Shown here piece after piece: positions 146-62,535 of a stretch of DNA of 64,000 nucleotides (its first letter is position 1; each line of letters begins with the position of its first letter). Origin of the DNA: Isurus oxyrinchus. Lineage: Eukaryota. The DNA lies in NCBI GenBank assembly GCA_026770705.1, contig JANJGN010000021.1:77004001-77068000 (forward strand), read 5' to 3'. The position numbers and the translations under genes were made by a program. The notes beneath the pieces were generated by a model that made no database searches, was not told where the DNA came from, and was given only the letters and a program-made list of their open reading frames with translations.

Positions 146-2452
146 GGGCAGAATTTTCCCATCCTGCTCATGGTGGGTGCGAGTGGAGAATCTAACAGTA
201 ACCAAAAAAAAAAATGTAATCCTGCCAATGTGTAAACATTTCTCCTGATGGCAAGTTAATGGTGGTGTGACCAGTGGCGTGAACACCATTTCCTTTCATT
301 ACCATCTCATGAATGCTCGTTAAGTCTGCTGCTTGCCGGAATCGTGTCATCTTCCAATCAAGCAGGAAATTGCTCCGGTCTGAACCACATTTGAAAAAGG
401 GTGGCATGCAGCGGTTGGACCTCACTTAGTCCACAACTTCAAGCTGAGTGCAACACAAATAGCTGACCTGTCCAGTCTTGTGATGCCAGTGGAATGCCAC
501 ACTGCTGGCAGTGTCAGGTTGGACTGCTCCCAGTGGATGTCTCTATAGTCACAAGAACATCACTGTTCACCGGGACTCAGACAGGGCTCAACATTCAGCC
601 AGAGACCAGCATTTCGACTGGAGTGAAAGGGATAACGGACACTTGGGGGGCAAAGGGACAGGAAGGCATTAAAAGGGCCTGGGAGAGAGGGCATGATGGA
701 AGGCAGAGGGGCAGGAAGGCTTTGCAAGGGGATGGAGGAGGGAAACAAGGGAAGGGCAGAGGGGAGACCAAGGCCAGGGGTGGGGGAGTTGGTGGGGAAG
801 CTGGAGCCCGACAAGGGATACTGAAACACTGACAAACATGAGGTTGGATGGGAAACGACATGAATAAATGGATGCATGCAGACTCTGGTATAGGAAAAGA
901 AGTGGGGGTGCGTATGTGTATTAATTTGTTGTTTGGCAACAGATGAGGCACATAAGGGATGGGTCACATTGAGACTCATGAAGGAGGGAGTGGGTGGGAA
1001 AGGTGACAGTGTAGTGCTCCGTCATGAGGGCAGTGGGAAACTCATTGAAAATCATTGTCCTTGATCTATTAGTTACAAGTGTGACATGTTTTCTGGATGG
1101 TGCCCAATTGGAATCGACCTAATTCACCAGTAATTAGTTTTAACTTTTGGGTTCGACTGAGGCTTTAAACCAACAGGATAAGACAAGAATATTCAAGTAG
1201 CAACTTCAAAGAAATTTTATTTAAAGAGAAAAATAGATTGATACAGATTTGTAACATAGAATTATGAAGTTATATTATATAAGAATTAGTTAAGTTGAAA
1301 TATATAAGAATCATACAATTAAACTTTCACATTTTTAATACATAGAGCATGTGTCTGTAATTACAATCATTCGATGTCTTTTTCCTTCACTAGATTAATT
1401 TTTATCACTATAACTCAAACAAAAACAAAGACATACTTATCAGATCCAAAAGACCTCTGTAACTTTTGATGGGGTGATCAATTCTATGGAAATGTGTATC
1501 TCCTTCCACCTTTTGAATAAGTATCCTTCAATCAGAATATGCTAAACTAACAGTGTCCCTGGAGGTGGGATTTTTAACCCCCAGAGAAAGTTCAAGACCC
1601 TCCCTCTCCATGTGTTAATATGATCTTGTCACCCTTTGATTGGCTTTAACTTAATTAGTCTTGGCCTTTGTGTGTAATTAATCTTGATGATAGAATAATT
1701 AACTTTTCAATATGTTACCTTAATCTGATTTCAAACACAACATTTTTACAAACTTTTGGTTCTAAATTTTCTTCTAAACTGCTTTAATGCATTCTTTTCA
1801 ATCATTTTTAGTTAAATTTATATAAGAAGCCTTTATATTAATTTTTAACATAAAATCCCTTTAGAAGCGTACCTAGTATTTACTTGTGTAAGTTTGAAAA
1901 CCAACCAAAACTACTAATTAATTAATAATTCCTCAATTATAATTGTAACTGAGGCTCAATCTTAATTTTTGGGCTCGGGTCCAACTATTCATATGAGCTA
2001 AAAACAAAAAAACTGCGGATGCTGGAAATCCAAAACAAAAACAGAATTACCTGGAAAAACTCAGCAGGTCTGGCAGCATCGTTGACAGGGCCCTCAACCG
2101 TGTCCGGCCCATCTCCCGTGCATCCGCCCTCACGCCTTCTCCTCCCTCCCAGAAACATGATAGGGTCTCCCTTGTCCTCACTTATCACCCCACCAGCCTC
2201 CGCATTCAAAGGATCATCCTCCGCCATTTCCGCCAACTCCAGCATGATGCCACCACCAAACACATCTTCCCTTCACCCCCCTTATCAGCATTCCGTAGGG
2301 ATCGCTCCCTCCGGGACACCCTGGTCCACTCCATCACCCCCTACTCCTCAACCCCCTCCTATGGCACCACCCCATGCCCACGCAAAAGATGTAACACTTG
2401 CCCCTTCACTTCCTCTCTCCTCACCGTCCAAGGGCCCAAACACTCCTTTCAA

Positions 2453-2782
2453 GTGAAGCAGCATTTCACTTGCATTTCCCCCAACTTAGTCTACTGCATT
2501 CGTTGCTCCCAATGTGGTCTCCTCTACATTGGAGAGACCAAACGTAAACTGGGCAACCGCTTTGCAGAACACCTGCGGTCTGTCCGCAAGAATGACCCAA
2601 ACCTCCCTGTCGCTTGCCATTTTAACACTCCACCCTGCTCTCTTGCCCACATGTCTGTCCTTGGCTTGCTGCATTGTTCCAGGGAAGCCCAACGCAAACT
2701 GGAGGAACAACACCTCATCTTCCGACTAGGCACCTTACAGCCTTCCGGACTGAATATTGAATTCAACAACTTTAGGTCATGA
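2453..2782 (+). pseudogene. GIY-YIG endonuclease domain of the PLE (C-terminal ORF fragment)
   Basis: NLVYCIRCSQCGLLYIGETKRKLGNRFAEH...LGTLQPSGLN, typical PLE GIY-YIG with CxxC; RT domain absent. Confidence 0.88.
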
Positions 2783-3185
2783 GCTCCCTCCCCCATCCCC
2801 ACCCCCTTCCTGTTTCCCCCCTTTTTTTTCCCAATAAATTATATAGATTTTTCTTTTCCCACCTATTTCCATTATTTTTAAATATTTTAAAATCTTTTAT
2901 GCTCCCTCCACCCCCACTAGAGCTGTACCTTGAGTGCCCTACCATCCATTCTTAATTAGCACATTCGTTTAGATAATATCACCAACTTTAACTTTAACAC
3001 CTATGTGTTCTATTGTACCATTGTCGCTGACATCTTTTGATGATCTGCTTCTATCACTGCTTGTTTGTCCACACAACCACACACCACCCCCCCCCCCCCC
3101 CCCACTCTCTCTCTATCTCTCCGCCCCCCCCACACACACACCTTAAACCAGCTTATATTTCAACTCTTTCTTGGACTCGAAATCA

Positions 3186-3224
3186 AGTTCTGTTGAAGGG
3201 TCATGAGGACTCGAAACGTCAACT
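3186..3224 (+). ncRNA. Minimal hammerhead-ribozyme-like motif in PLE terminus (variant core CUGUUGA)
   Basis: AGTT-CTGTTGA-A-GGGTC(atgag)GACTC-GAAAC-GTC-AACT: helix I AGTT/AACT, helix II GGGTC/GACTC, palindromic ACGT helix III. Confidence 0.65.
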
Positions 3225-3434
3225 CTTTTCTTCTCCGCCGATGCTGCCAGACCTGCTGAGTTTTTCCAGGTAATTCTGTTTTTATTCATATGAGCTGATG
3301 GATCAAGGTCATTGATAGTGGTCCTTATCTGTTACCAGAGCTACATACATACTGGTGCAGATCATTGTCTTTAAACTGTAGGTGTAATCGTATTGATGTA
3401 GATAAATTCTAGAAGGCTGACCTTCCTTCCATCG

Positions 3435-5944: not shown

Positions 5945-6121
5945 CTCCTCCCACCCCCACCCCCCAATCCCCCCCACCACCTTAAACCGGCTTATATTTC
6001 ACCCCTCTCCTACTTTTACTTAGTTCTGTTGAAGGGTCATGAGGACTCGAAACGTCAACTTTGTTCTTCTCCGCCGATGCTGCCAGATCTGCTGAGTTTT
6101 TCCAGGTATTTCTGTTTTTGT
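5945..6121 (+). mobile_element. PLE 3' terminus with hammerhead-like motif (6022-6060)
   Basis: Near-identical to 3140-3280; flanked by imperfect 17-bp duplication gttgaagtccctcaatt / gttgaaatcccttaatt. Confidence 0.8.
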
Positions 6122-9100
6122 GTTGAAATCCCTTAATTGATCCTTTGACTAAATAAGAACTTTCATTAGGGCTGCAACTTTGAATATCAGGTTACATCAG
6201 GCAAGTGATATATGAACAATTCCCTTTTTTATAATTGTAACACTATCTTTTACCCCTGTACTTGTCTAGAGTGTTAATATGAGTGAATGTGTGAGTGGGT
6301 GAAGTAGTATCCATTTTGGGGCTTTTAGTTTTATTGTTTAAAAATAAACAATCATCTTCCTTTCCTAAAAGAAAGAATTCCTGAATGTCTGCTGCGATTC
6401 TTGATGACACACTCATGTACCATTCCTATTCTTTAACTTCATTGATCACGGGCAGTTTGAAAAGGGAACAGAAATTGTCAGCAGTTTCCCTTCCAACCTG
6501 ACCATGACACTGCACTAACTACAACTTTAAGATAATCAGTCAAACGCGTAATGTGGCTCATTTATACCTGCTACAAGTGCCAAACTTTCATATGGAGGGA
6601 CTCTTCTCTGCAAACAGAAGGAATATGTTAAAGTCTTGCACCATTTTTGAATTACCCAGAATGTTAGGGAGCCAATATTTCCCTGTGTATTCTCCATGGC
6701 AACGCCTTGACCAACCAGAGTTGACCTGCCAACCAATCAGCGCCCTTCTCTCCTATAGTATGAATTGTGATCATTTGAAATTTGGCATTCTTGCATTTGT
6801 CCTGAATTTAAGATGAAAAGCTTCGCAACATGTCTCTCTTTTCAGCAGTCTGGAAATATTCTCTGTCATGTTCTTGCCCACAGGCAGTGTGTGTGACAAG
6901 ATGGAAACCTTACAGGTGGGAAGCTTGCTTCACAAGGCTGAAGCCTATGAAAACAGGTAGGTATATTGAGGGAGAGAGAGAGAGATCGTGTAAGTGAATC
7001 CCAATACTTGGGGTGGAAGGAGTTGGTTCATGATTTCTGGAGTTGTGGCTGGGAGGCACAGGGAGATAGTGTGCAGGGGAGGAAATGGTGGTTGGGTAAG
7101 AGAAGACATCACTGATTGTGAGGGCAGGAAGCAGTTTATACTAGGTAGTTCTTTTGGGCCTGGAGCAAACATTCCTTCTCCTCCCCTGATCCACAAGCAG
7201 TGCTGTAAAGACAATCACCTCATGGATTCAATTCTTCTCACCACTTAGCCAAACCTTTGACCTGGGAAACCCGGACATTCTTTCCCACAGCTGTTGCTGC
7301 AGCAATCGGAGGGGCTTCCCAGCCTGCCCCAGGAAAGTTCCCTGATGGCGGGAATGCATCCCGGAGCCAGCCCAAGGAAGATCCACCCCCCCAATATTCC
7401 CAGCTTTCCCACTTCCAAGCCCTCCAACACCAGGCCGGTAAAATTTAGCCCAATGTGTCAGCCTCCAGGCCCATCTCAGCTCCACTCCTGGGGCTTGAGT
7501 TGCCTTTGTGACCAAAGCTGAGGCCAGGTCTCAGTGGGAGCCCCTCCCTGCTGCTGTGTTCTTGGAGCCCTGAGAGACAACATGACTGGATTTCACACAG
7601 CCTGCTGGGAATGAAGGAAACGGCCTCTTGGTCATGATAAGGATGACAACTCATTAACATGTCATTCTAAGTTATGTAAATAGGAGAGTTTGACATTGGA
7701 AGTTCCTCCAAGCACCGTTGTCCCTTTCTAGCCACAGGTTTCTGGTGCTCTACTGCTGGATGAAACACTAGAGTGCAGCAAATTTCATTCCTTTTGAGAT
7801 ACAAACACCTCTTGTTCCCAATATTCTCCTGCGATCAGTCCCTGCCCACTCCCGTCCTACTTCATCATTTCCTTGTGGAATGTTGGAAATATTGGGATTT
7901 CCCACCTTTATCCCTTCAATTTCTTTATTTCAGCTCATCTTTAAACAGCTGGATTGTCCAACAGATATTCATGTATTTCCTGACAGCACATTTCCAGGAG
8001 TGTACAAGAGACAAGAGAGTGACAGCAAAGAGGTCGGACATGTCCACTCACACTCATCACCATCCATCTTGTCCACACCTCTTGCTGTGCTGGTCAGATG
8101 GGGAAATGCTGGATTTCCCCTGAAATTGAGATACCGGCAGGTTTGTTGCATCAGAGAATCACTCGGAGTGAAAGATGATGAAGGAAAGGATCAGAAAATG
8201 TAAAGCTTGGAGGAACTGGATTCTGAACAAAATGAGGCTCCTCACTCAATCCAGATGAACACACACGAGGCCTGTTCCAAAGGAATTGGAAAGCAAACAG
8301 CATGAAGAGAACTAGCACAGAAATATTGAATAACAGGAAGATGTGAATTGTAGACATGAGATGAAATTTAACCCTGCAGGAAGGAAGGAAGGAAGATGTC
8401 AATCTGTAATAACTGGGACATTGAAGCTCGAATGTGCTGAGTCATGGACTGAATAGAATGATCACTCTTCCCACTCTCATATGATCTACTTTCCCACTGC
8501 TGTTTATGGAGTGGCTCGGCCCCATTGGATGGGTTTACAGTGAATCTCAGCATTTGTTCCTGAGACCCAATTTGTTGAAATTTAGTTGATGATCACATTC
8601 CCTCCCCAGAGGCGGGTGGCACAGAGCCGACCAATGTACGGACACTGGTCAACGCTGAATCACTGAGCGCATTTGTAGAGATCATTTTCTCCTCTTATAC
8701 CTCACCCAGAGCTCGATGGAGACACAAGGGACAACTCCTGTTTCCTTCAGTCACCATTCCAGTAAATGCTGAGCCTGATGGGGGAACCGAGGCCCTGTCC
8801 CTCTGAAGTACTTTGATGACATCTCCATAGCCGTGGAAAGCTTCATCTGACTGATGGAGAATCCAGTCTCTGGCACTTCATGAGTGGGAGGACAATGCCC
8901 TCAAATGGACCAACACTGCCCTTGTGTCTGTTTCTCTCACCAGCAGCAGGACGTCCCTTTCTAATCTCCTGGATCAAAAACCAGGCTGACCTTACTGATT
9001 CCTGGGATTCCTTTCCTTAGATTCCAGACTTCCCTGCATTCTGTTGTGAAGCCAGGTGCAGGCTCCAGACCCAGTGGAAGCAGAGTGGGATTGAGGGGGA

Positions 9101-15889: not shown

Positions 15890-16450
15890 TTGAAAGCGGC
15901 TGACCGTCCGTCAGCCTGCAAAGAAATATGACAGACGCTGACTAATGGCGTCAGCAGTTCCCACAATTCCCAGCGCCCCAGAAACCGCTCTATCATTTTC
16001 CCCAGGCGCTGGGAGTGCGCATGCTCCCCAGACGACCCTGATTCAGCCTCTGAAACCCGCAACAAAAACAGAATTACCTGGAAAAACTCAGCAGGTCTGG
16101 CAGCATCGGCGGAGAAGAAAAGAGTTGACGTTTCGACAGAACTTGAGTTCGAGTCCAAGAAAGACCCGCATTCGTTGTTGCTAAGGCTGCGCTCGGCCCC
16201 GCTCAGTTTCCTGAAGCCGCACCGAATGCGCATGTTCTGTGCTGTCAGGTGGCCAGCGAGGGTTGGGGGTGGCGATGGTGGGGGGGATGGGAGGTGAGGG
16301 AAAATGCCCTACCTACGCTTGTGCGGTGCGCCCGTTTGATGGAAATAGACCGTATTCACCCACGCCATGCTTTCTGGGTAGCATCATCCTCCATTATCCC
16401 ACCTTGAAATAATTTAGAAACCGGCCGTTCGGCCCTTAAAGCCAGAAGTC
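15890..16450. promoter_or_regulatory. CpG-rich promoter-like segment, interrupted by a PLE terminus at ~16062-16162
   Basis: High CpG; cacaattcccagc (ZNF143-like ~15962), tgcgcatg NRF1-like sites (~16016, ~16227); insert flanked by acccgca duplication. Confidence 0.6.
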
Positions 16451-17095: not shown

Positions 17096-17181
17096 CAAGG
17101 GAGAGCACAAATGCAGTCCCCCAGTACCATAAATTTTGCAGTCGAGTATCCCACATTTGGAAACATCACAGGCATCAGTAT
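17096..17181 (-). pseudogene. RNU1: U1 snRNA 3' half (U1 nt ~80-164)
   Basis: Minus strand CCTGTGATGTTTCCAAATGTGGGATACTCGACTGCAAAATTTATGGTACTGGGGGACTGCATTTGTGCTCTCCCTTG matches vertebrate U1 SL3, Sm site (mutated) and SL4. Confidence 0.9.
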
Positions 17182-18476
17182 CTGCAAGAATATTACAAAA
17201 CATTTCAAAATGACCATCACAAAAAGTGAAATAATATTCATGTTTTCCACATAGATCATGCTTAAATACAATCAAGGAACATTACAATCATTTCATAATG
17301 GTCATAACAGACAGACAGTGCAGTGGTATTTAAGTTGTCTACATAGATCATGTTGCACTTTGAGGTTCTTCAATACAATTGTGATGCATATAGTATTCAC
17401 TGCATACATTCACTGTGAGTCATACAGCCTGAGGAGTCTATACAATTCCCAGCGCCTCGGTGTACTATGGCAGAAAGGTCTTAAACAGCGATCTTTCCCC
17501 ATTGCACCTTTGTGGCAGCTGTCCCTAGCTTTAGTGCATCCCTCAGCACCTAGTCCTGAACCTTGGAATGTGCCAGTCAGGGACAACTCTTTGCACTGGA
17601 AGACCAACAAGTTTTAGGCAGACCAAAGAGCGTCTTTCACCGAGTTGATGATCCTCCAGCTGCAGTTGATATTTGTCTCAGTGTGTGTCCCTGGGAACAG
17701 CCTGTAGAGCACACAGTCACAGAACTGCTCGGGATGAACCTCGACAAAAACCACTGCATCTCTCTGCAGACCTTCTTTGCAAAGGCACATTCCATAAGGA
17801 CCTAAACAACGGTCTCTTCCACACCACAGCCACCTCGAGGGCAATGTACACAGTGGGTGAGACTCCTGGTGTGTAGGAAGGATCTGACAGGGAGGGCTTT
17901 TTTCACCACCAGCCAAGCTACATCTTGGCGCTTGTTGAAAAGTTCTGGTAATGAGGAATTCTGCCAAATGACTTTGACAGTCTGCTCAGGGAACCATCTG
18001 ACAGGATCCACCATCTCCTTTTCCCTCAGGGCCTCTAGGTCGTTACATGCCGACCACTGCCTGATGGACTTGTGGTCAAAGGTGTTTCTCTGCATAAATT
18101 TTCCCACGAGGGACAGGTGGTACGGCACGGTCCAACTACTTGGAGCATTCCACGGCAGCGTGGCCAGACCCATCCTTCGCAACATCAGGGACAAATAGAA
18201 CCTTGGCACATAGTGAAACTAGGTGTTTGCATACTGAGGGTCTACGCACTGCTTGATGCAGCCGCACACAAAGGTGGCCATCAAGATGAGGGTGATAAAG
18301 GCAAAATGCTGTGGATGCTGGAAATCTGAAATAAAAACAAAAAATGCTGGAAAAACTCAGCAGGTCTGACACCACCTATGCAGGGAAAGACAGAGTTAAC
18401 ACCTTGAGTCCATATGACTTTGTCAAAGCCTTCTTCTTGAGGGCGATGTTGGGCACATTTTCCCCCCTTTATCTCG
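17182..18476 (-). mobile_element. Tx1-clade non-LTR retrotransposon, 5'-truncated (ORF2 C-terminus and 3' UTR), inserted in U1
   Basis: GGK.VPNIALILMATFVCGCIK, WLVVKKALPVRSFL, CPRGGCGVEETV (zf-RVT), VFQCKELS; interrupted by a PLE terminus ~18295-18437. Confidence 0.85.
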
Positions 18477-18565
18477 AGGCGATCACCACCACACAGGAGC
18501 AAGGAACGGGCCTCATTCTTGCAGAAGCAACCATGATCATGGACTCTCCACTGCCAGGTAAAAAT
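18477..18565 (-). pseudogene. RNU1: U1 snRNA 5' half (U1 nt 1-~90)
   Basis: Minus strand ATTTTTACCTGGCAGTGGAGAGTCCATGATCATGGTTGCTTCTGCAAGAATGAGGCCCGTTCCTTGC vs U1 ATACTTACCTGGCAGGGGAGATACCATGATCACGAAGGTGGTTTTCCCAGGGCGAGGCTTATCCATTGC. Confidence 0.8.
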
Positions 18566-18671
18566 TGATAAGAACAGAAACTACACTTGAACTTAACCAA
18601 AAGACCATGAGGCTTTTGCAGATAGTTTCACATACATGCATCTTCTGTGCACGTTCAATAATTTTAATCAG

Positions 18672-18723
18672 TCTGGAAAACACAACTCTCCGCATCATTG
18701 TTTGCCTCCTACCAGGTAAGTAT
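18672..18723 (-). pseudogene. RNU1: Second, truncated and diverged U1 snRNA copy (5' ~50 nt)
   Basis: ATACTTACCTGGTAGGAGGCAAACAATGATGCGGAGAGTTGTGTTTTCCAG, then the same 3' flank (tgattaaaattatt...gtatgtgaaa) as follows 17096. Confidence 0.65.
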
Positions 18724-18939
18724 ATTTTATTAGGTTCACATGCTGCCAGCCCTCATCGAGCACTGCCTCTCACAGTCACACACGCTCAGTTTCAAATCAT
18801 AACCACATCCCATTCAGAAGCTGTTGCCACTCCTAAAGGCCAATTCTGCACGACGATTGCAGTTGTATGCTTGACTGTTCCTTTAGAGAAAAGGCTGCAC
18901 TGATAGAGAGCCTTCCAACCTTATTTGCTGTATTTGTTA

Positions 18940-19535
18940 ACTGTATTCCTCTCTGCAGATGCTGTCAGACCTGTTGAGTTTTTCCAGCCATTTTTGTTTT
19001 TGTTTCAGATTTCCAGCATCCGCAGTATTTTGCTTTTATCTTATTTGCAGATTGCCCTTAAAAGGAAATGAACCACCCTTAAAAGGCAATAACTGCTGCC
19101 TGCAATACGAAGATAAAAGCAAAAAACTACGGATGCTGGAAATCCAAAACAAAAACAAAAATACCTGGAAAAGCTCAGCAGGTCTGACAGCATCTGCGGA
19201 GAGGAACACAGTTAACGTTTCGAGTCCGTATGACTTTCGAGTCCGTATGACTTTTCAACAGTTCTGTTGAAAAGTCATAGAAAAGTCATGCGGACTCGAA
19301 ACGTTAACTGTGTTCCTCTCCGCAGATGCTGTCAGACCTGCTGAGCTTTTCCAGGTATTTTGTTTTTGTCATGCAGTACCAATATTGTCTATTAGGTGTC
19401 GCTGCTCCCTCACCTCTCAGGTTGAGTTCTGTCGAAGGGTCATGAGGCCTCGAAACGTCAACTCTTTTCTTCTCTGCCGATGCTGCCAGACCTGTTGAGT
19501 TTTTCCAGGTAATTCTGTTTTTGTTTTTTTTTGAC
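18940..19535. mobile_element. Cluster of PLE pseudo-LTR termini in both orientations
   Basis: Four copies of the gatgctg..agacctgctgag..tttccagg module; 19150-19370 forms an inverted pair; hammerhead-like motif 19424-19464. Confidence 0.8.
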
Positions 19536-24599: not shown

Positions 24600-25593
24600 A
24601 TGTGAGTGAAAGCTGCTCCTTATTCTGTGAGCATCCTTTGCTTGTGTAGAAACTCAGAGTCTGATGACAGATTGGCTAAAGCTTGGTGAGGGAGACCCTG
24701 TGTGGGTTCACTGATATTCCAGGAGGACCAACAACTGTGTGAAGTCTTTAATACAGAACTCACACTTATAGGGTCTCTCCCCGGTGTGAGTGCATTGATG
24801 TGCCAGGAGATACACTGACTGTGTGAAAATCTTGTCACAAACATCACACCTGAATGGTTTCTCCTCGTGTGAATCCTCTGGTGCTCCAGGAGGGTCAAAG
24901 AAAGCTTCATCACAAACCTCACACTTGAAGGGTTTCTCTCTTGTATGGATCCTCTGATGGGGAGGAGGTTTGATGACTGTGACAATGATTTGTTGCACAC
25001 CTTGCACGTGAATGGTTTCTCCCCGATGTAAATGTGTTGGTGTCTCAGCAGCCTCGTAGATATTGGAAAAACTTTTTCACAAACCTCACACTTGAAGAGA
25101 GTTTCTCCCCTGTGTGAATCCTCTGGTGTATCAGGAATCTCATAGATGTTGGAAAAGCTTTATTGCAAATCCCACAATCCTCTGATGGAGCAGGAATCTC
25201 AACGAGTCAGAGAATGATTTGTCACAGACCTTACACTTGAATAGGAATGAGTCACTGGTTCATGAGGCTTGATGAATGATTGAAGCTCTCTCCAAACTTG
25301 GAGCCACTCACACTTCTTCCCAGCCTCACCCTGACCAATCGCCCACAGATGAACCTTTGGAAAGGTTGGTTCTGATGGAAGGTTCCACACCACTGACCAG
25401 TTTCAGATCTGATGATATGTCAAAGCTCCCCTGACCCAACCGATTTCCAGATGATGGTTTCACTGCCCAACCTTTGTGTTGAGCAATGCTGTGAAGGGAC
25501 TGGATGTCTTCCCACAGTTGTGCAGTTAGTCCTTGGGTGATGGTCAAGATCTATCTCCGGTGTATTTATCTGGTGTAGTATGGTGCAATCCTT
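24600..25593 (-). pseudogene. C2H2 zinc-finger pseudogene (terminal exon)
   Basis: Frameshifted fingers (HTREKPFKCEVC, HTGERPYKCEFC); acceptor ttttcctgttttacag at ~25594 and leader homologous to 38258-38735. Confidence 0.85.
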
Positions 25594-29004: not shown

Positions 29005-29231
29005 ACTGAGGCATTAGGGGTTTTACCTGACCTTGTTCTCCACCAGCTCTGAAGAAGAGTAAAGGAAGGAGCAGCTGACATCACCCAAACAAAACGCTGC
29101 AGGAGATCAGCAAAAAAGGAGGAATCGACAAAAATGGCACCTTCTACTCAGCACCTGATTGGCTGCTGTTCAGAACAAGGGCAATCATTGGCCAAATGGC
29201 ATTTCAATCAGGATGGTTTATGCACCAGAGA

Positions 29232-29972
29232 TAAAAACAAAGAAAACTGCGGATGCTGGAAATCCAAAACAAAAACAGAATTACCTGGAAAAACTCAGCA
29301 GGTCTGGCAGCATCGGCGGAGAAGAAAAGAGTTGACGTTTCGAGTCCTCATGACCCTTCGACAGAACTTGATTTCGAGTCCAAGAAAGAGTTGAAATATA
29401 AGCTGGTTTAAGGTGTGTGTGTGGGGGGGCGGAGAGATAGAGAGAGAGAGAGGTGCTTGTGTAGACAAACAATCAGTGATAGAAGCAGATCATCAAAAGA
29501 TGTCAGTGACAATGGTACAAAAGAACACATAGGTGTTAAAGTTAAAGTTGGTGATATTATCTAAATGAATGTGCTAATTAAGAATGGATGGTAGGGCACT
29601 CAAGGTACAGCTCTAGTGGGGGTGGGGGGAGCATAAAAGATTTTAAAATATTTAAAAATAATGGAAATAGGTGGGAAAAGAAAAATCTATAAAATTTATA
29701 GGGAAAAAAAAGGGAAAAAGGGGGAAACAGAAAGGGGGTGGGGATGGGGGAGGGAGCTCACGACCTAAAGTTGTTGAATTCAATATTCAGACCGGAAGGC
29801 TGTAAGGTGCCTAGTCGGAAGATGAGGTGTTGTTCCTCCAGTTTGCGTTGGGCTTCACTGGAACAATGCAGCAAGCCAAGGACAGACATGTGGGCAAGAG
29901 AGCAGGGTGGAGTGTTAAAATGGCAAGCGACAGGGAGGTTTGGGTCATTCTTGCGGTCTGTCCGCAAGAATG
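29232..29972 (-). mobile_element. PLE 3' fragment (same young family as 2000-3282)
   Basis: RKNDPNLPVACHFN...LGTLQPSGLNIEF; hammerhead-like motif 29330-29368. Confidence 0.9.
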
Positions 29973-31069
29973 GCCTTCTCTGTGATTGATATGATGAGAG
30001 TAGTGAGACCAGGTGAGACAGCGAGGTCAAGGATGTGGCTGGGAATCTGGGTTGGGGAAATCACTGAAACTTTGAGACAGGGCAAACAAGGAAACTTCTG
30101 GAAAGACAATAGCTTCTCACATACAATCTATACTTTTCCAGTATTAATTACTGACACACAAAATACAAATCCCGATCCTGTCAGCTCATTACTCGAATGT
30201 TTGGAATTGATCCAATCTGGTTGTGGATGAAAAGAAAGGGCCGGTCCACAAAAAGACATCAAATTTGGCAGATATTACATTGAGACAAAGGGTCAAAGTT
30301 ACAACGACCAAACCCCATCTTGTCCTGCCCCAGTGGCCTAATGGATACGACACTAGCCTCCTAAACCAGGGATTATGGGTTAAGTCCCATCTGGGGTGGA
30401 TTAAAGTTTGGTCTTGAAACAAATCTCCTTCTCTCAACAATGTGATAGTCAGGGAACTTTCTGTTTAGCTTCTTAGCCAATCTGGGCCGTTCTTGTTCAG
30501 CCCCTTTCTCATTCTGTCTGGCTTTCCAGTGACACAAACCAATGCAAGTTTCTCCCAAACTGTGCACCATCCCAACTCTCAGGGAACAATGTCACCTCCA
30601 CTTTCCAGGCAAATACTGTCGCTTTAACTCCTGTCTTTAGTTTACTCAACACCCAAACACAGTTACTACTTTGAAATGACAACTGATAATATGTAAAATT
30701 AGCTTGAGCAATTTATGTCAGGAAGGATATTAAGGAATATAGAGCCAAGTGGATGGATGGGGTTAATGTACAAATCAGCCATAATCTAATTGAATGGCAA
30801 AACAAACTTAAGGGGCTGAATGGCCTCCTGTTCCAATGTTCCTAAGTTTATGAGTGGATCAGGATCAAAAGATGGGGAAATGGATTTGAGATACGGATGA
30901 ACCATCATGGGATTGGGCTTGAGGGGTGAATGGCCTCCTCTTGTTGCTGTAAATGTGTACAACAATATAACATATTATTAGGGAACAAACAATCCCATCG
31001 CTGTCCATCACCAGTGCACCCCTTTCTCTGGGTTGTTACTGAGTTTGAGCAAAATAGGATTTATAAGAA

Positions 31070-36553: not shown

Positions 36554-38257
36554 TCACACGTGAATGGTTTCTCCTGTGTGAGTGCGTTGGTGTCTGCGGA
36601 GATTTGATGAATCCGAGAATGATTTCTCACACATCTCACACGTGAATGGTTTCTCCCCAGTGTGAATACGTTGGTGTTTGCAGAAATCCGATGATGTTGA
36701 GAATGATTTCTTGCACACGTCACAGGGGAATGGTTTCTCGCCGGTGTGAATACGTTGGTGTGCGCGAAGGCTCGATGACTGTGAGAATGATTTGTCACAC
36801 ACATCACATGCAAATGGCTTCTCCCCTGTGTGAATGAGCCGGTGATTTAACAGGCTAGATAATTGCACAAAGCCCTTATTACATACCTCGCATGTGAATG
36901 GCTTCTCCCCTGTTTGAAGGCGTTGATGTATACGAAAGTGAGATGACCGTGAGAATGATTTGTTGCACACCTCGCACTTGAATGGTTTCTCCCCAGTATG
37001 GATGCGTTGGTGTCTGCGGAGGTTTGATGATTCTGAGAAGGATTTGTCGCACACCTCACACTTGAACGGTTTCTCCCCAGTGTGAACGCGTCGGTGTTTC
37101 ACGAGTGTCGATGACTTTGTGAAGGCTTGGTCGCACACCTCACACTTGAAGGGTTTCTCTCCTGTGTGATCTCTCTGGTGTATCAGGAGATCAGACAATT
37201 GGATGAAAGCCTTCTCACAAACCTCACATCTGAAGGGTTTCTCCTCTGCGTGAATCCTCTGGTGTGTCAGGAGCCTCGTGGATTTTGCGAAAGCTTTATT
37301 GCAAATCTCACACTTGAAGGGTTTCTCCCCTGTGTGAATCCTCTGATGAACCAGAAGATTCGATGATGTTGAGAATGATTTGTCACACACCTTGCACCTG
37401 AACGGTTTCTCTCCTGTGTGAAGGCGTTGGTGTGTGCGGAGGTTCGCTGACGTCGAGAACGAATTTGCACACACCTCACATGTGAATGGCTTCTCCCCTG
37501 TGTGAGTACGTTGATGTTTACAAAGATTCCCCGATGATGAGAATGATTTCTCACACACCTCACACTTGAAAGGTTTCTCCCCTGTGTGAGTGCGTTGATG
37601 TTTATGGAGATTCCCTGATGATGAGAATGATTTCTCACACACCTCACACTTGAACAGTTTCTCCCCTGTGTGAGTGCGTTGATGTTTATGGAGGTACCCT
37701 GATATTGAGAATGATTTCTCACACACCTCACACGTGAATGGTTTCTCGCCTGTGTGAATGCGTTGGTGTACGCGGAGATACAATGGTGAGGAGAATGATT
37801 TCTCGCACACCTCACATGCGAATGGTTTCTCACTTGTGTGAATGTGTTGGTGTCTGCGAAGATTCGATGAATCTGAGAATGATTTCTCACACACTTTACA
37901 CGTGAATGGTTTCTCCCCAGTGTGAATCCGTTGGTGTGTGCAGAATTCCGATGACGATGAGAATGATTTGTCACATACCTCACAGGGGAATGGTTTTTCC
38001 CTGGTGTGAATGTGTTGGTGTCTGTGGAGGCTCGATAATTGCAGGAATGATTTGTCGCACACCTCACACACGAAGGGTTTCTCTCCTGTGTGAATGAGCC
38101 GGTGTTTCACCAGGCCTGATAACTGTGTAAAACCCTTGTTACACATCTCACATTCGAACGGCTTCTCCCTGATGCAACTGCATTGGTGATTCCCAAGTGT
38201 CGATGAATGTGTGAAGACTTCGTCACACAAATCATATATGAATTGTTTCTCTTCCAT
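36554..38257 (-). CDS. C2H2 poly-zinc-finger protein, 567 aa, 20 finger repeats (18 canonical), no KRAB/SCAN/BTB in the ORF
   Basis: Open ORF of 28-aa CxxC-x12-HxxxH repeats with TGEKPF linkers; splice acceptor at 38736-38737. Confidence 0.9.
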   Translation of the reverse strand: MEEKQFIYDLCDEVFTHSSTLGNHQCSCIREKPFECEMCNKGFTQLSGLVKHRLIHTGEKPFVCEVCDKSFLQLSSLHRHQHIHTREKPFPCEVCDKSFSSSSEFCTHQRIHTGEKPFTCKVCEKSFSDSSNLRRHQHIHTSEKPFACEVCEKSFSSPLYLRVHQRIHTGEKPFTCEVCEKSFSISGYLHKHQRTHTGEKLFKCEVCEKSFSSSGNLHKHQRTHTGEKPFKCEVCEKSFSSSGNLCKHQRTHTGEKPFTCEVCANSFSTSANLRTHQRLHTGEKPFRCKVCDKSFSTSSNLLVHQRIHTGEKPFKCEICNKAFAKSTRLLTHQRIHAEEKPFRCEVCEKAFIQLSDLLIHQRDHTGEKPFKCEVCDQAFTKSSTLVKHRRVHTGEKPFKCEVCDKSFSESSNLRRHQRIHTGEKPFKCEVCNKSFSRSSHFRIHQRLQTGEKPFTCEVCNKGFVQLSSLLNHRLIHTGEKPFACDVCDKSFSQSSSLRAHQRIHTGEKPFPCDVCKKSFSTSSDFCKHQRIHTGEKPFTCEMCEKSFSDSSNLRRHQRTHTGETIHV

Positions 38258-40409
38258 CTCGCAGTCCTTGTGTTACTGGTGGGACAACAGATGGACCTTG
38301 CGTATTAGGAGATCTTATAAGCCTGTGAAATCCTCCTGATACACCTCACACTTGAACAGCCTGTCACCTGTAGGAATGAATCAGTGGTTCACGAGGCTCA
38401 ATCAACAATTGAAGCTCTCAACACACTTGAAGCCCACTCACACTTCTTCCCAGCCTCACCCTGACTGATCACCCACAGCCAAACCTTTGGAAAGGTTGGT
38501 TGATGCAAGGCTCCACACCACTGACCAGTTTCAGATCTGATGATATATCAAAGCTCCCCTGGCCTGACTGATTTCCAGATGATGGTTTCACTGCCAAACC
38601 TTCTCTGTGTTGAGCAATGCTGTGAAGGGACTGGATGTCTTCCCACAGTTGTGCAATTGTTCCTTGGGTGATGGTCAGGATCTATCTATGATGTCTATCC
38701 TCTCTGTATTCTCTGGTGTAGTACAAACAGTCCTTCTGTAACACAGAAAATGAAACATGATTTCCTTCAGCTCCCTCTCCTCCTTTGCTGACGGTCTGAT
38801 TCCTTAGTTTTTTATTTATACTTTCACAGGATATGGGTTTTGCTGGTCAGGCCAACATTTATTGCCCATTCCTAATTGCCCTTGAGGTGGTGGTAGTTAG
38901 CCACCTTGTTGAACCGCTGCACTCCATGTGGTGCAGGTACACACACAGTGCAGTTTGTGGTGGGGGGGGAAGTTCCAGGATTTTGAACCAGTGACAGTGA
39001 AGGAACAGTGATATATTTCCAAGTGAGGATGGTGAGTGACTTGGAGGAGAGCTTCGAGGTGGTAGTGTTCCCATGTATCTGCTGTCCTTGTCTTTCTAGA
39101 TGGTAGTGGTCATGGGTTTGTAAAGGACTGTCTAAGGAGCTTTGGTGAGTTGCTGCAGTGCATCTTGTAGATGGTAAACACTGCTACCACTATGCGTTGG
39201 TGGTGGAGGGAGTGATCGTTTGTGGTTGGAGTGCCAATAAAGCCGACTGCTTTGTCCAGGATGGTGTCAAGCTTCTTGAATGTTGTGGGAGCTGCACTCA
39301 TCCAGGCAAGGAGGGAGTATTGCATCACACTCCAGACTTGTGCCTTGTAGATGGTGGAAAGGCTATGGGGAGTCAGGAGATAAGTTTCTCACTTGACTGT
39401 TGCACACCTTGTTTCCAGCAGGGACACTGGATAGTGACCAGTGGCTACTTTATTTCCTCCACCCAGCCCCCCCCATCTTCCCAGACACTGTGAGGTCAAT
39501 GGAAAAGACAGTTGGGCAGAGTGTAAAATCAGCTATCAGTTCACTATGAGTCCAAGTTGTGCTGGTGAAAACTAGTTCTACCCTTAGCAAATGGGTTTAA
39601 TAGAAAAAACACTCAGGAGAAATATTAATTTAATGGGGATTTTGAAATTTCTCACCCTTGTTTTCCAAAATTATTTGAAGAAAACAGACTGGACAGGAAG
39701 TGCTAGAAGCTAAGGAAAATGTTGCTTCAGTGTAGCTGACTGAAGGGTTCTGGTTTATCCTGGGAAATTAGATACACTGCACTCGCCCAGACTGCACATC
39801 CCAAATTTAGCTATCAGCCACAGCACTGGGCAAAACTATCAAATCCAAGCCCAAGTTCTGGGAAAGGCCAAGGCCTTCAGGTAAAATCTTTAAAGAAGGC
39901 ATAAAAAAAATTTCAATAAATTTCAATAAATGGAATTCAGGAGAAACTTCTTCACCTAGAGAATGATTAGAATGTGGAACTTGCTCCCACAGGGAATGGT
40001 TGAGGTAAGTAGTTTCAATGGATTTGATAGGAAGCCATTAAGTATATGAGGGAGGAAGGAATAGAAGGATCTGCTGATAGAGTGAAATAAAATAGGGAGA
40101 AAGCTCATGTCTCTGCACCTCCCAGATAATTACACCTCACCTTCTCATATTCAGTAATGACCCATCAACAAAACTCAGCCTGTAAATCAGAAGGGAAATG
40201 CTTCCAATAAACACACTCAATATCCAACACACAGCTCCAGTCAAACAGTTCAGCACAAAGCACCCAGTAAACAGCTCTCTCAGCTGGATCTTCTCACACA
40301 GCATAAGGGGCATTTCCACACCTGATTCCCCACAGGATAGTCAGACTACCTGAACATTAGTGTGGATATTATGTGATGTAATTATTATAAATTCTGTTCC
40401 TTCACTCAC

Positions 40410-40910: not shown

Positions 40911-42319
40911 CACCCTCTATTCCCCCCCATCAACATTTTTCAGGATAATATTCAGAATTGAGAGATTGTAACTATCAGGTAAGATTGAACAGGCTGATCC
41001 CCATTTCCCTAGAAAAAAGAAGGCTGAGGGGTGACATGATAAAAACCTTTAAAATGATGAAGTATAAAATTAAGAATTTGGGGGTAAATGGAGAGATGTT
41101 CCCATTTGTGAGGGGGAGTCCAAAACTAGGGGCCAGAAATAAATCCAATGAGGAATTCAGGAGAAACTTCTTCACCTAGAGAATAATTAGAATGTGGAAC
41201 TTGCTCCGACAGGGAATGGTTGAGGTAAGTAGTTTCAATGGATTTGATAGGAAGCCAGTAAGTATATGAGGGAGGAAGGAATAGAAGGATCTGCTGATAG
41301 AGTGAAATAAAATAGGGAGAAAGCTCATGTGGAGCATGAACACCAGTAGAAAGTAGATGGGCCAAATGATCTTTTTTTGCTTTAAAAACTAGAATCAAAA
41401 CAAAAAGAAATGTTGCAAATACTCAGCAGGTCAGGCAGTATCTGTGGAGAGAAACAGAGTTAACATTTCGGCTCGCGATGACCTTTCTTCAGAAACTCGG
41501 TTGCATGTTGGGCAACTCTTCCTTTTGTCAAAGAGCAACCCCCAGTCTCACCACCCTCTCCCGCTCTCACTGCTCCTGCCTCCTTATCTTCACTGCAAAT
41601 CCTGCTCAAAGCAGCAACCCCCCCCCCCCCTCCCCCCCTCCTGCCAACCCCCCAGGTCCCATGGTCTAAATGTCCCTTATTTGGTTTTCTCAGATTTGGT
41701 CACCCTGGAGTCAGTCTCAAGTCACAGTCACTCCCGAAGCACAGTGTTACTCTCTGAGCACAGAGTGAATCCCAGAGCACAGAGACGTTGCCAAAGTCAC
41801 TCCACAAATCCAGCTGTCACTCCCCAAGACATACCCGAAATCCCCAAGTCAGAGTCACCCCCAGACACACAAGCCAGTCCCCAAAGACTGGCTCAATCTC
41901 CTCTCTTACTCCCTCCCATGCACCGTCTCCCATGCCTCTAAACCTCCTGTACCCCTCCCTCTCCCATGCCCCCCTCTCTCCTGTGTTCCCCTCTCTCTCT
42001 CCTGTGCCCCTTTCTCCCTGTGCACGTGCTGAACCCAGCACTGCACATCATTGCTGCCTTGGATGCTGTGGGTTTTCCTCTTCTGATCTGTCAAACACAC
42101 CCGAGGCTACACATCCCACACTGATGTTGTCAGTTTGAAAGTCTCTGAGGATGAAGAATGCTATTCCCACACTGGAAATCTCTGTCACACGTTTACCAGG
42201 GGTAACTCAGACAGCAGCTGCAATAAGTGAGGTTTTATTCAGATGGGACAATGACAAGTTTAAATCCCCACCTGATCTGTTGCTCAAAGTCAACTCCGTT
42301 TCACCAGTTTCCCAAGTTT

Positions 42320-43000
42320 CAGGGTCCCCCTTGTCCTCACTTATCACCCCACCAGCCTCCGCATTCAAAGGGTCATCCTCCACCGTTTCTGCCAACTCCA
42401 GCATGATGCCACCACCAAACACATCTTCCCTTCACCCCCCCGGTGGCATTCCATAGGGATCGTTCCCTCAGTGACACCCTGGTCCACTCCTCCATCACCC
42501 CCTACTCCTCAACTCCCACCTATAGCACCTCCCCATGTAAATACAAAATATGCAACACCTGCCCCTTCACTTCCTCTCTCCTCACCGTCCAAGGACCAAA
42601 ACACCCCTTTCAAGTGAAGCAACATTTCACTTGCATTTCCCCCAACTTAGTCTACTGCATTCGTTGCTCCCAATGTGGTCTCCCCTACATTGGAGAGACC
42701 AAACGTAAACTGGGCGACTGTTTTGCAGAACACCTGCGGTCTGTCCACAAGAATGACCCAAACCTCCCTGTCGCTTGCCATTTTAACACTCCACCCTGCT
42801 CTCTTGCCCACATGTCTGACCTTGGCTTGCTGCATTGTTCCAGTGAAGCCCAACGCAAACTGGAGGAACAACACTTCATCTTCCGACTAGGCACCCCTTC
42901 CTAGGATTCACCTACTTCTATTGAAGGGTCATGAGGACTCGAAACGTCAACTCTTCTCCGCCGATGCTGCCAGACCTGCTGAGTTTTTCCAGGTAATTCT
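42320..43000 (+). mobile_element. PLE fragment with GIY-YIG and terminus
   Basis: ORF 42443-42904 NLVYCIRCSQCGLPYIGETKR; internal deletion joins it to the terminus at ~42915. Confidence 0.88.
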
Positions 43001-45153
43001 AGGAATGGCTGCATACTTGTTCAAACTCAATGTGTCAAGGAGCACTGAAGGATGCACCGTCAGGCTGCAGTCCCCCTCCCTGCATGGATGGGGTTGGGTG
43101 GGGGTGGGGCTGTGGATAGTTCCTGATCTCAGCCCAGATAGAGAGGAGGCAATGGGCAGAGAGGCATGTGGCAGAGAGGGAGTCATTTCTGCTCCTGACA
43201 TGTCTTTTGATGATAATCATGGAATGAGGGCTGTGCCAGGCTGTGAGATTGTGGTGGAATATAATCCTGCTGCTGCTGATGGCTCGCTGCACCTCATGGA
43301 TACTCAGTTTTGGGATCTGTCCTTAGTCTACTTCCCTACTGATGATTAACATGGTGAAGTACTCATTGATCAGTTGGGAGGGGAGTGGTAATTTTCCTTC
43401 AACTTGTTTGACCTGAAGCCATGAGACTTCGTGAAGTCAATATTGAGACTTCCCCACCTGCCAGTGGGATGGGACATACCCAAGGATAGTGGCGAAGGAG
43501 TCTGGGATGTTTCCAGATTGTTACGCTTCAGTGAATATCACTGCTACTTGACTAGTCTGTGGGGCAGCTCTCCTCACTTGGGTACTTGTTCTCAGACCTT
43601 CACAGATTTGACTGGGCTGAGGTCATCTTAATCTTATTCTGACACAATGCCAGGGGTGTCCAGATCTATCTGATTTTCCTCTTACTATTGGACTTTGTAT
43701 TGATTGTTTATCATTGTTTGCTCGGCCACTTCAGAGGGCAGTTCAGAGTCAACCATGTTGTGTGGGACTGGAGTCACATGTAAACCAGACCAGGCAGTTG
43801 TAGCTTGTTCCCTTCCCTGAAGGACAATATTTGGGTTTCTCGGACAACCTGAAAAATTTCATCAGTTTGTTTTTATTCTACTCCACAAATTCCAAAATAT
43901 ATTAAATTCACCTTCACAACTTGCAGTGGTTGAGGGGAATAGCAAAGGTGTCTTTAGGGGGAAACTAGATAAGCAGAGAGGAACAGAAGGATAAGCTGAT
44001 GGGGTTAGATGAAGAGGAGTGAGTGGAGGCTTGTGTGAAGCATAAACACTAGCATCGAACAACTGGGCCGAATGGCCCATTTCTGCACTGTAATTCTAAG
44101 TGTGTAGCTTTCTGTGGTTAGGTTTGAACTTTCAATCTCTGGATTGTTAATCCAGCAGCATAGCAATTCAGTTGTTATACTTGGAGACACTTTTATTGAA
44201 ATGACTTTCAATGGCTTAAGTCAGTGTGTTTTCTTCAAATAATTTTGGAGAATAAGGGGAACAATTTCAAATCCTAATTGAATTAACATTTCTTCTGAGT
44301 GTTTTCTATATTAAACACATACTCTAAGGGTAAAAGTGGTCTTCGGCAGCGCAACTTGAGCTCATAATAAATTGAGAGCTCGTTTTACACTCTGCCTGAC
44401 TGTTTTTTCCATTGTCCTCATGGTGCCTGGGAAGATGGGGGCTGGGAGCAAGAAAGAAAGTAGCCATGTTGTCTGCTCCTGGTCACTATCTAGTTTCCCT
44501 GCTGGAAACAGAGGGTTTGTGACAGTCAAGTGAGGAAAAAGAAAAGATTTGTCTCTAATCCCCCACACAGGGGAATAGCAGGCTGGCACTCTCTGTGGAA
44601 CAGTCTCAAATGAAGGAGTCAGCCCCTTCAGCAAAGGGTGAGAGGGATTTGGAGGAAATCATGTTTCATTTTCCTGTTTTACAGAAGAATTGCACCGTCC
44701 TACACCAGAAAATACAGAGAGCATAGACACCACAGATAGGTCCTGACCATCGCCCAAGGAACAACTGCATAATTGCATAACTGTGGGAAGACATCCAGTC
44801 CCTTCACAGCATTGCTCAACACAGAGAACATAGGTGAAACTGTTATCTGGAAATTGGTTGGGTTAAGGGAGCTTTGACATATCATCAGATCTGAAACTGG
44901 TCAGTGCAGAATTTCCATCAGAACCAACCTTTCTCAATGTTCAGCTGTGGGTGATTGATCAGGGTGAGGCTGGGAAGAAGTGTGAGTGGCTCCAAGTTTG
45001 GTGAGAGTTTCAATCATTCATCGAGCCTCATGAACCACTGACTCATTCCTACAGGTGAGAGACTGCTCAAGTGTGAGGAGGGCTCCATAGGCTCGTATGA
45101 TCTCCTAACACATAAGGGGCATCTGTTGTAGAACTGTTCACAAGGAGAGCTAC

Positions 45154-51583: not shown

Positions 51584-53244
51584 GCTGCAGCTTGTTACTG
51601 CCTGAACTGTGCTGTTGCTGTGGTTGTGCTTGGTGTTGGCTGTGCTGATGCTGCTGCTGCTGCTATGGGGTTTCCAGTGGCTGTTGCTGCTGCTGTGGGA
51701 TTTCTAGTGGCTGTCCCTGCTGCTGTGGGGTTTCCAGTGGCTGTTCCTGCAGCTGTTTTACTGTGGCTGTTCCAATTATTGTGTTGCTGCGTTTTCTCAA
51801 GCCTTCTTCCATCCTCTGTTGTTTGGGGCCTGGGGGGCCTGAGGCCTGGAGGAAAGAGAGAGGAGGTGCTGCTGCTGCAGGATAGGGAGACCAGGAGGCA
51901 AGGACTATTTAGTTTAACATCCGAGGTGGGTGTCTGGACTTTTGTTTGGTGGGGGCTGAAGGCAGTTGTGTGTTTTGTAGAGAGAGGAGAGAAGACCGCT
52001 GCAGAGACTTGGGGGAGAAGAGGTGTGAGAGTTATTTAAAATCTTACCAACCCCCCTGCCTCACTCTGACCATGTCTGAGTCCAGGTAGCTGGTGCTTCC
52101 TGGTGAAGAGGGACAGGGCTGATTCCTGTGTGCCAGGCAGTATCGGCTGCCTGGTGAAGACATCGCCCGCCTGGTGAAGGCATCGCCCTCCCCCTATGGA
52201 AAGAACATTGAGGCCCCCCACTCACACTCCACTTCACTAAGTGATACTCACCTACCCTTTATCTTTTCCTTCCTGTGTTTCCCTGTCCTTTACCCCTCTC
52301 CCTCCTTTCTCTTTTTGTCTTCCCGGATGGGGAGGTTACACCATCCTTTCCCCCTCTCCTTAGAGTGGGATATTGTGGAATATATAGCTCAGGGTGGGTG
52401 TGGCTCATCCCCTATGGCTGCGACAGGGTCACCTGTAGCTGGGCCTTCCCGGGTGACTGTGGAGGCAGTGATGTCACCAGTGGCAAGGCCCCCCAAGAAA
52501 TCTTATGCGAGTGCAGCTGCTTCTGTGGCCCTGTCACCTTTCCAACTCCTCACCAAGGCCCTGTGGATGAAGAGCTACACCCATCCCGAAATGACGATCA
52601 AGGCGTGAGTAAAGGCTATGGCTGGGGTTGTCGGCCACTCGGCCGTCGTTGTGGCCTCGAAGATGTACGAGGTCAGAGCGGGCGGTGCACCTGGCCCTAT
52701 AAAAGAGACTCACTGTGGGTGGGATGTTTCTGGCGGTGGACCCCTTGGAGGCCACTGCCCAGAGGATCATCATTACCAATATCCCGCCCTTTATCCCCAG
52801 TGAGCCTCACCTCTATCATCTGTGGGAGGTTAGGTCAGGGGTTGCACCAATCCCACTTGGCCTCAAGGATGTACCCCTCCGACACGTGTATTCCTTCCGG
52901 CGCCACGTTTTCGTCTGCCTGACCCAGGAGGAGTGTGTGGAGGGTGCCTTTAATGTGGAATATGAGGGGGCTGCCTACGAGTCTTCTGGACTGCGGATGG
53001 CGTGCGGTGCCATGCCTGCAAGGAAGTGGGACACATCTGTAAGAACTGCCCCGACTCCAAGGCTGCCAGCACCATCCAGGCGGCTGTCGCTGGCACCACC
53101 GCTCCTCCCCTCTGCCACTGCTCCATCTTCCTGCAAGGGGAGGAGCCACCGGCAGCCACTGCCATCTTGGCAGTGGCGAGTCGGAGGGGAGAGACCCTGC
53201 GCCATAAGAAGGCGTGGAGGATGACCCACCACCTGGAGACATCC

Positions 53245-53277
<33 letters not shown>

Positions 53278-61567: not shown

Positions 61568-62535
61568 AAACAAAAACAAAAATACCTGGAAAAACTCAGC
61601 AGGTCTCACAGCATCCCTGGAGAGGGAATACAGTTAACGTTTCAAGTCTAAATGACTCTTCATCAGAACTAAGGAAAAATTGAAAAGAGGTGAAATATAA
61701 GCTGGTTTAAGGAGGGTGGGGGTGGGACAAGTCGAACTGGATAGAGGGCCAGTGATAGGTGGAGATTGCCAAAAGATGTCATAGACAAAAGGACAAAGAG
61801 TTGTTGACAGTGGTGATATTAGCTAAGAGATGTGCTAATGGTGACATTAAGGGTAGAAAGCAGGACGAGCAAGGTACAGATAGCCCAAGTGGGGGTGGGG
61901 TGGGGGGAAGGAATCAAAATAGGCTAAAAGGTAGAGATAAAACAATGGATGGAAATACATTTTAAAATAATAGAATTAGGTGGGAAAAGAAAAATACATA
62001 TAAATTATTGGAAAAAGGTGAGGGGGGGGGAGCGTGGTTGGGATGGAGGAGAGAGCTCATGATCTAAAGTTGAACTCAATATTCAGTCCGGAAGGCTGTA
62101 AAGTGCCTAGTCAGAAGATGAGGTGCTGTTCCTCCAGTTTGCGTTGAGCTTCACTGGAACATTGTAGCAGGCCAAGGATGGACATGTGGGCATGAGAGCA
62201 GGGTGGTGTGTTGAAATGGCAAGCTACAGGGGGGTCTGGGTCATGCTTGCAGACAGACCGAAGGTGCTCTGCAAAGCGGTCACCCAGTCTGCGTTTGGTC
62301 TCTCCAATGTAGAGGAAACCGCATTGGGAGCAGTGAATGCAGTAGACTAAATTGAGGGAAGTGCAAGTGAAATGCTGCTTCACTTGAAAGGAGTGTTTAG
62401 GCCCATGGACGGTGAGGAGTAGGGAAGTAAAGGGGCAGGTGTTGCAACTTCTACGGTTGCAAGGGAAGGTACTGTGGGAGGGGGTTGAAGTGTAGTGGGT
62501 GATGGAGGAGTGGACCAGGGTGTCCTGGAGGGACA
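61568..62535 (-). mobile_element. PLE 3' fragment with GIY-YIG
   Basis: ORF 62111-62578 NLVYCIHCSQCGFLYIGETKRRLGDRFAEH; terminus 61568-61670. Confidence 0.9.
61632..61670 (-). ncRNA. Minimal hammerhead ribozyme motif with canonical core
   Basis: Minus strand AGTT-CTGATGA-A-GAGTC(attta)GACTT-GAAAC-GTT-AACT. Confidence 0.72.

Follow-up and report, generated by a model that had tools for sequence, protein, structure and literature searches.

A Penelope-like retrotransposon lineage of Isurus oxyrinchus fixed U at position 6 of its hammerhead core, a change that likely cripples self-cleavage

Minimal type-I hammerhead motifs are described from the pseudo-LTRs of metazoan Penelope-like elements (PLEs; Cervera & de la Pena 2014, PMC4209133). 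In the available text of that report, these motifs have in common with the ones analysed here that they lie in both flanking repeats, with a 4-bp helix I, an extra base between positions 9 and 10.1, a G10.1-C11.1 pair, a palindromic 15.2-16.2 without loop 3, a GUC or GUU triplet, and solo as well as opposite-strand copies. The difference lies in the core: the motifs of its Fig. S3 all carry A6 (which the descriptor used there demanded), whereas those described here carry U6, and the core variant given there is U3-A8, as opposed to position 6 here. A natural substitution at this same core position is found in the A6C hammerhead of phage Bcep176, which cleaves at <0.1 per minute (PMC3088659, PMC7151607). 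An engineered A6C ribozyme was reported to cleave at 3.55e-6 per minute in 0.3 mM Mg, compared to 0.3 per minute for its parent (~1e5-fold slower), and to retain 0.18 per minute in Mn (PMC7151607). Although slowness in Mg2+ makes Bcep176 a close parallel, it concerns C6 in a single assayed phage motif with full helices, whereas the present motif has U6, is minimal, occurs in >70,000 copies and is known from sequence. In a saturation scan, mutants of the CUGA turn had low activity and were not rescued, save by a C3-G8 swap (PMC9901934). Neither an A6U cleavage rate nor a natural U6 hammerhead was found in the literature searched, which comprised papers readable without subscription.

Two further PLE groups bear on whether cleavage is needed for transposition. 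Hammerhead mutants of the Anolis Poseidon element inserted undiminished in vitro, and cleavage required the protein (Frangieh 2024, PMC11167929). Poseidon resembles the present element in that insertions continue beyond the cut site and reach two end points in the tail and, in the available text of that report, in that uncut RNA is the template and no reads end at the cut site. It differs in having a canonical core and a motif that lies over the ORF start, whereas the present motif precedes the ORF and has a naturally altered core. Naiads amplify without hammerheads (Craig 2021, PMC8557442) and share with the present element a high copy number without a canonical hammerhead; here, however, the motif is kept with an altered core, whereas the excerpted report describes none in Naiads. 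The same source describes Neptune EN+ PLEs, whose RT plus C-terminal GIY-YIG, Cys linker, tandem and inverted insertions, and tail are likewise found here.

The window analysed (the whole stretch of 64,000 nucleotides of I. oxyrinchus DNA) contains the motif under study within a 5′-truncated Penelope-like insertion that is bordered by a 13-bp target duplication at 1987-1999 and 3284-3296 (Table 1). The motif starts with a 4-bp helix I, followed by C3 U4 G5 U6 N7 G8 A9 and one extra A after A9, and then by a 5-bp helix II (with a 5-nt loop and G10.1-C11.1 as closing pair), GAAA, CG, U and C17. Position 6 is its sole departure from the minimal Penelope hammerhead consensus, as far as the available part of PMC4209133 describes it. 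Its U7, which sits on the youngest upstream haplotype, is likely a product of CpG decay. In the youngest subfamilies, the linker that precedes helix I (3171-3183) contains a second copy of the helix II 3′ half plus GAA(A), a partial duplicate which could act as a competitor in folding.

Table 1. Hammerhead-like motifs and associated Penelope-like features in the 64-kb window
Feature	Position	Strand	Match
Minimal type-I hammerhead-like motif, core CUGUUGA (U6), GUC triplet, youngest upstream haplotype	3186..3224	+	
5′-truncated Penelope-like insertion: inverted tail, 3′ ORF part, 3′ UTR, motif, tail	2000..3283	+	94% to a tandem unit
Inverted copy of element tail, 5′ end of insertion	2000..2081	-	
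ORF C-terminal part: Cys linker CX4CX2C and GIY-YIG domain	2079..2782	+	Pfam PF01541 E 8.7e-05
Conserved tail 3′ of cut site, continuous with uncut motif	3225..3283	+	
U6U7/GUC motif (CUGUUGA), older U6U7 subfamily; copy 5947-6124	6022..6060	+	
Young terminus, helix II deleted	16061..16164	-	
Fold-back pair, older U6U7/GUU termini, small internal duplications	19123..19369	.	
U6C7/GUC motif, private helix II mismatch; copy 19425-19527 starts at helix I	19425..19463	+	
U6C7/GUC motif, youngest-subfamily master state; copy 29226-29966	29330..29368	-	
U6U7/GUC motif, private changes at G5 and helix I; copy 42321-43000, internally deleted	42914..42952	+	
A6U7/GUU motif, immediate older relative of U6 lineage; copy 61568-62533	61632..61670	-	
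A6A7/GUU motif, more distant family	41457..41498	-	

The element was identified from its full-length tandem units, of which a pair of 3,353 and 3,340 bp is 99.5% identical. Specifically, these units (locus L041) hold an 865-aa frame, shifted by one base close to its N-terminus, in which RT (RVT_1, E 6.5e-08) and GIY-YIG (E 8.4e-04, short of the curated cut-off) were recognised; the GIY-YIG domain of the window fragment clears that cut-off. One ATG-to-stop frame of 920 aa, with a locally shifted N-terminal stretch, was present among all fetched loci (L332). The traits of EN+ PLEs were found both in the coding part (a single ORF with RT plus C-terminal GIY-YIG) and in the insertions (tandem pseudo-LTR units, an inverted tail, the 13-bp duplication and two 3′ end points). 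Moreover, the CX4CX2C immediately upstream of GIY-YIG fits the Zn-finger-like CX2-5CxxC linker between RT and EN of the Neptune clade. The element therefore appears to be a Penelope-like retrotransposon of Neptune type, the clade being read from its Cys linker. Its motif has the minimal type-I helix I, helix II with G10.1-C11.1, base inserted after A9 and palindromic 15.2-16.2, and GAAA, A15.1-U16.1 and H17 are invariant in every subfamily consensus with data (11/12). It is thus built like a minimal hammerhead yet lacks the A6 of the CUGANGA core.

Inspection of the window bore out the seven motifs of the sequence-only reading at their places and with their cores, some details of which required revision. 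The two A6 termini do have canonical cores (CTGATGA and CTGAAGA), but their triplet is GUU and not GUC, and the youngest subfamily has CUGUCGA as its master core rather than the CUGUUGA seen at 3186. Two deviations, the CTATTGA core at 42915 and a mismatch in helix II at 19425, are each private to a single copy, and further U6 copies were found in the fold-back and the helix II-less terminus listed in Table 1. An Rfam search of the window returned no hammerhead match. The region 18936-19527 accommodates a cluster of four Penelope termini, nested or side by side and belonging to three ages, whose fold-backs yield spurious Rfam microRNA matches. Elsewhere, the window contains a cluster of C2H2 zinc-finger ORFs recognised by their repeated linker motif (36554-38272 on the minus strand, 45109-46509 on the plus strand, 24620-25159 on the minus strand and 60001-60537 on the plus strand; 572 and 466 aa, besides broken copies). 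At 17096-17196 (-), 18497-18723 (-) and 30327-30398 (+), Rfam gave partial matches resembling U1 and U2 under its cut-off and a tRNA-like one, which probably represent pseudogenes or the heads of SINEs. The stretch 52100-54600 has a 42-nt tandem array and degenerate pieces of ORF that include a zinc-knuckle-like motif; these pieces may be ORF1 of a Tx1-like element.

Rarity of U6 among young copies would have counted against a U6 lineage, and the opposite was found. Throughout the 4.98-Gb genome, the exact young motif with positions 6 and 7 left free had 74,813 matches (reversed control: 0), of which 73,104 carry U6 and 1,709 another letter. While such match totals cover the whole genome, letter counts refer to the matches listed, located on the largest contigs: by hand count, positions 6-7 among 100 matches listed of the 74,813 read 82 UC, 16 UU, 1 UG and 1 CU, and position 6 among 100 matches listed of the 1,709 read 89 C, 6 A and 5 G. 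With the whole core left free, 51,292 motifs of the youngest haplotype were found, with U6 in 100/100 among the matches listed. Exact matching undercounts older families. A relaxed descriptor applied to 654 kb, made up of the window and 590 kb from stretches placed arbitrarily, returned 14 U6 and 3 A6 motifs, and each of three shuffles returned 0. The genome-wide count and the youngest-haplotype motifs rule out that U6 arose by decay after insertion, and a register shift masking a canonical core is ruled out because A6 relatives align gap-free. These data confirm U at position 6 as the master state of the lineage, genome-wide.

The history of the change was traced in 232 termini, 143 of which were put into 12 subfamilies by upstream haplotype, with 89 left unassigned. 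Judged by copy-to-consensus divergence, which is biased low because most copies were picked by exact patterns, the consensus ladder runs from A6A7/GUU (9.1%) and A6U7/GUU (5.6%) over U6U7/GUU (5.8-6.7%) and U6U7/GUC (3.9-4.4%) to U6C7/GUC (2.6% and 1.6%), with a fully canonical A6U7/GUC side branch at 4.9%. U6 combined with the old loop had 3,639 exact non-A6 matches and ended in GUU in 100/100 among the matches listed, and U6 is therefore older than GUC. A6U was fixed once in the older GUU subfamilies and passed to all later masters. A tree of ORF columns from 103 copies, including some duplicate rows from overlapping loci, was ladder-like with A6 copies basal, with low support at the A6/U6 boundary and three A6 copies among U6. 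That the lineage went on transposing with U6 is borne out by its fixation in successive subfamilies down to 1.6% divergence and by near-identical full-length tandems, and U6 has persisted over a synonymous divergence of ~0.17-0.20. U6 itself is older than the young family of the sequence-only reading, as it predates the GUU to GUC switch.

The A6U7/GUC sister (L188, L189, L193, L195, L196, L200-L203, L207) shares its 10.2 and 17 changes with the later U6 line, through either convergence or recombination. The notion that U17 was held in place by a branch point and freed on loss of the downstream AG is ruled out, because this sister has C17 yet retains the AG. A broken helix III (ACAT) was considered as a further subfamily and rejected: among 100 matches listed of 7,562, hand count gave 17 ACAT vs 15 ATGT, a symmetry that points to CpG decay.

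A comparison of the first U6 consensus with the youngest one shows differences at 39/236 synonymous (0.165) and 24/733 non-synonymous sites, next to 37/188 sites of the 3′ UTR and 12/24 of the adjacent linker. The motif itself accumulated 5 true changes in 39 positions (a sixth being an alignment gap), namely at position 7, at position 17 (U17 to C17), at 10.2 (helix II A-U to G-U, keeping the pair) and in two loop letters. All five lie at positions that hammerheads tolerate, and on the main line no other core letter was altered and no base pair broken. C17 gives the optimal triplet, GUC. In simulations, the probability of the motif escaping any disruptive change was 0.008-0.045 (~0.013 given five changes), and that for the ten core letters alone was 0.11-0.25, which is not significant.

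The motif might in principle be an unconstrained relic that died at A6U and has had too little time to decay, given that its rate of change is near the synonymous and 3′ UTR values, that the core-only test is not significant, and that variants with G4 and C6 (see below) exist in many copies. Because the changes spare the core and pair-breaking positions while half of the adjacent linker changed, and because a sharp peak of 5′ ends at helix I (see below) shows this region to be of importance to the copying cycle, we regard this as improbable. The same intact core letters and helices, as well as the gain of C17 after U6 and in the canonical sister subfamily, could instead mark U6 as a slow ribozyme, likely rescued by the element protein, dimerisation or Mn2+, whose low-level cleavage is under selection, for example for freeing unit RNAs from read-through transcripts with most templates left uncut. 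Natural A6C ribozymes, which are slow yet cut well with Mn2+, and the protein-assisted anole motif, as reported in the sources above, would fit such a scenario. Local constraint is not catalysis-specific, however, since the neighbouring non-ribozyme blocks are better conserved than the motif (upstream box 0/20 and tail 4/71 vs 5/39), and the core alone is not significantly conserved. In addition, two-sided covariation was absent from 12 distinct motifs of this shallow lineage (0 pairs changed on both sides, two on one side), in which 97.1% of 105 helix cells are paired. We therefore hold a slow, assisted ribozyme to be possible but the less probable account.

Equilibrium folding predictions assigned helix II of isolated U6 motifs a probability of 0.94-0.99 and helix I one of 0.23-0.69, whereas in one 144-nt context helix II dropped to 0.02-0.13 and other folds are predicted to dominate. 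A core-sequestering hairpin built by U6 was rejected as a candidate (probability <=0.06 in isolated U6C7 and U6U7 motifs), and dimer folding energies did not separate the variants. Restoring A6, proposed earlier as the control for cleavage assays, is predicted to backfire in the young C7/GUC background, where an inhibitory 5-bp helix would pair the core with the cut site (-11.3 vs -7.3 kcal/mol). The natural A6/GUC sister subfamily is therefore the better choice and offers a natural positive control.

A second core change was found at position 4, which is non-U in 763 motifs. Among 100 of these listed, hand count gave 63 G, 21 A and 16 C, meaning that the G4 transversion outnumbers the transition 63 to 16, which extrapolates to ~480 G4 copies. 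On one upstream haplotype, 34 G4 and 6 A4 were counted among 100 matches listed of 303, and A4 on this G4 haplotype appears as the CpG decay product of G4. In the surveyed loci (L247-L266 and L287-L336), the arms of one insertion agree in 17/20 pairs holding G4 (15 G/G, 2 A/G), and both repeats of one full-length tandem (C2:175.569-175.573 Mb) carry G4; linked changes marking a G4 clade, other than G4 itself, were not found when 34 G4/A4 copies were compared with 22 T4 copies. From these letters we infer that one or a few source elements bore both U4G and A6U, with the caveats that the upstream repeat of the source may have been U4 and that copies may have been mobilised in trans. The spread of U4G together with U6 is the most direct genomic sign of insertion without an intact core, and it speaks against a slow ribozyme under selection. 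The branch nevertheless stayed small (hundreds vs tens of thousands) and founded no later masters, and such dying out is what residual selected cleavage would lead one to expect.

At position 6 itself, C exceeds A or G ~20-fold where position 7 is U, and it does so on at least 5 haplotypes (L031-L040, L267-L286). It mostly occupies one arm, with the arms of inverted pairs disagreeing in 12/14, so that a clean C6 subfamily is not supported; the excess could stem from a mutation hotspot, from RNA editing, or from two different RNAs having served as templates for the two arms.

The 3′ ends of copies lie ~60-105 nt beyond the cut site, at two end points, and are unbroken with the motif. In a set of 238 copies whose selection ignored upstream letters, the upstream box is retained in 124, and 80 have their start within ~4 nt of the first helix I base, with further-downstream starts under-counted because most helix-I-start copies were found with patterns beginning there. 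Helix I is immediately preceded, at 3140-3187 and in every subfamily, by an invariant box, a pyrimidine tract and an AG, and it is there that 5′ ends peak in short copies and in fold-back ones. We take this start region to be akin to an initiator and a splice acceptor. In Penelope of D. virilis, an intron ends at helix I and an internal promoter is present. RNA-run contigs under four organism labels contain the stretch, and splice joints were absent from the assembled RNA contigs, which hold no read ends. An extra cap-derived G, the mark that a transcription start should leave, was seen at 15/51 5′ junctions, which is not significant.

None of 94 unselected copies, found by their tail alone, started at the cut site. 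Genome-wide, 907 exact tails lack C17, and 30 inspected ones resolved into 17 point mutants and 13 junctions (11 fold-backs, mostly with short microhomology, 1 internal deletion and 1 plain junction). Cut-site starts thereby extrapolate to ~500 copies, or ~1% or less genome-wide, and may exceed those at neighbouring interior positions. These ~500 copies are what some residual cleavage could leave behind, but they are mainly fold-back junctions with microhomology.

Of the two outcomes that the sequence-only reading had left side by side, an active core variant or a dispensable ribozyme, the U4G and U6 source and the rare cut-site ends favour dispensable cleavage, and the kept fold argues against a freely decaying relic. 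Because >70,000 copies arose after A6U and the double mutant spread, cutting is likely weak or unneeded for jumping. The account we prefer, with a probability of roughly 0.55, is that of a crippled ribozyme retained for a non-catalytic role and copied from uncut RNA. The lineage fixed U at core position 6, which likely cripples self-cleavage, and the element would be copied from uncut RNA, yielding copies that are unbroken across the cut site. The RNA template may start at or just before helix I, through either transcription start or a reverse-transcriptase stop. If it does, the 39 nt would double as a 5′-end element, be it a protein-bound RNA fold or an overlapping internal promoter, and such a role would account for conservation without catalysis. 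Weighing against this preferred account are the restriction of post-A6U changes to tolerated positions, including U17 to C17, the small G4 branch without later masters and the non-significant cap-derived G. Assisted cleavage is its main rival, and a free relic ranks as least likely.

Since cleavage by the anole ribozyme depends on its protein, a protein rescue of U6 is possible. It is conceivable, though doubtful, that U6 is a working protein-dependent hammerhead in which the element protein would replace the A6 contacts, cleavage would occur only inside the RNP, and U17-to-C17 would have retuned the site. If true, a natural A6U hammerhead with activity would be on record for the first time, and it would be one fixed in the Penelope lineage that dominates a 5-Gb genome.

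Core-based searches overlook the hammerhead-like motif that is commonest in this genome, as 14/17 intact sampled motifs have U6. Hammerheads are nearly universal in Penelope elements, yet they are slow and proved unneeded for insertion in the one in vitro system. The present lineage provides a natural mutational series (A6/GUU, A6/GUC, U6/GUU, U6/GUC and G4U6), each member with its copy count, so that catalytic rate can be compared directly to transposition success.
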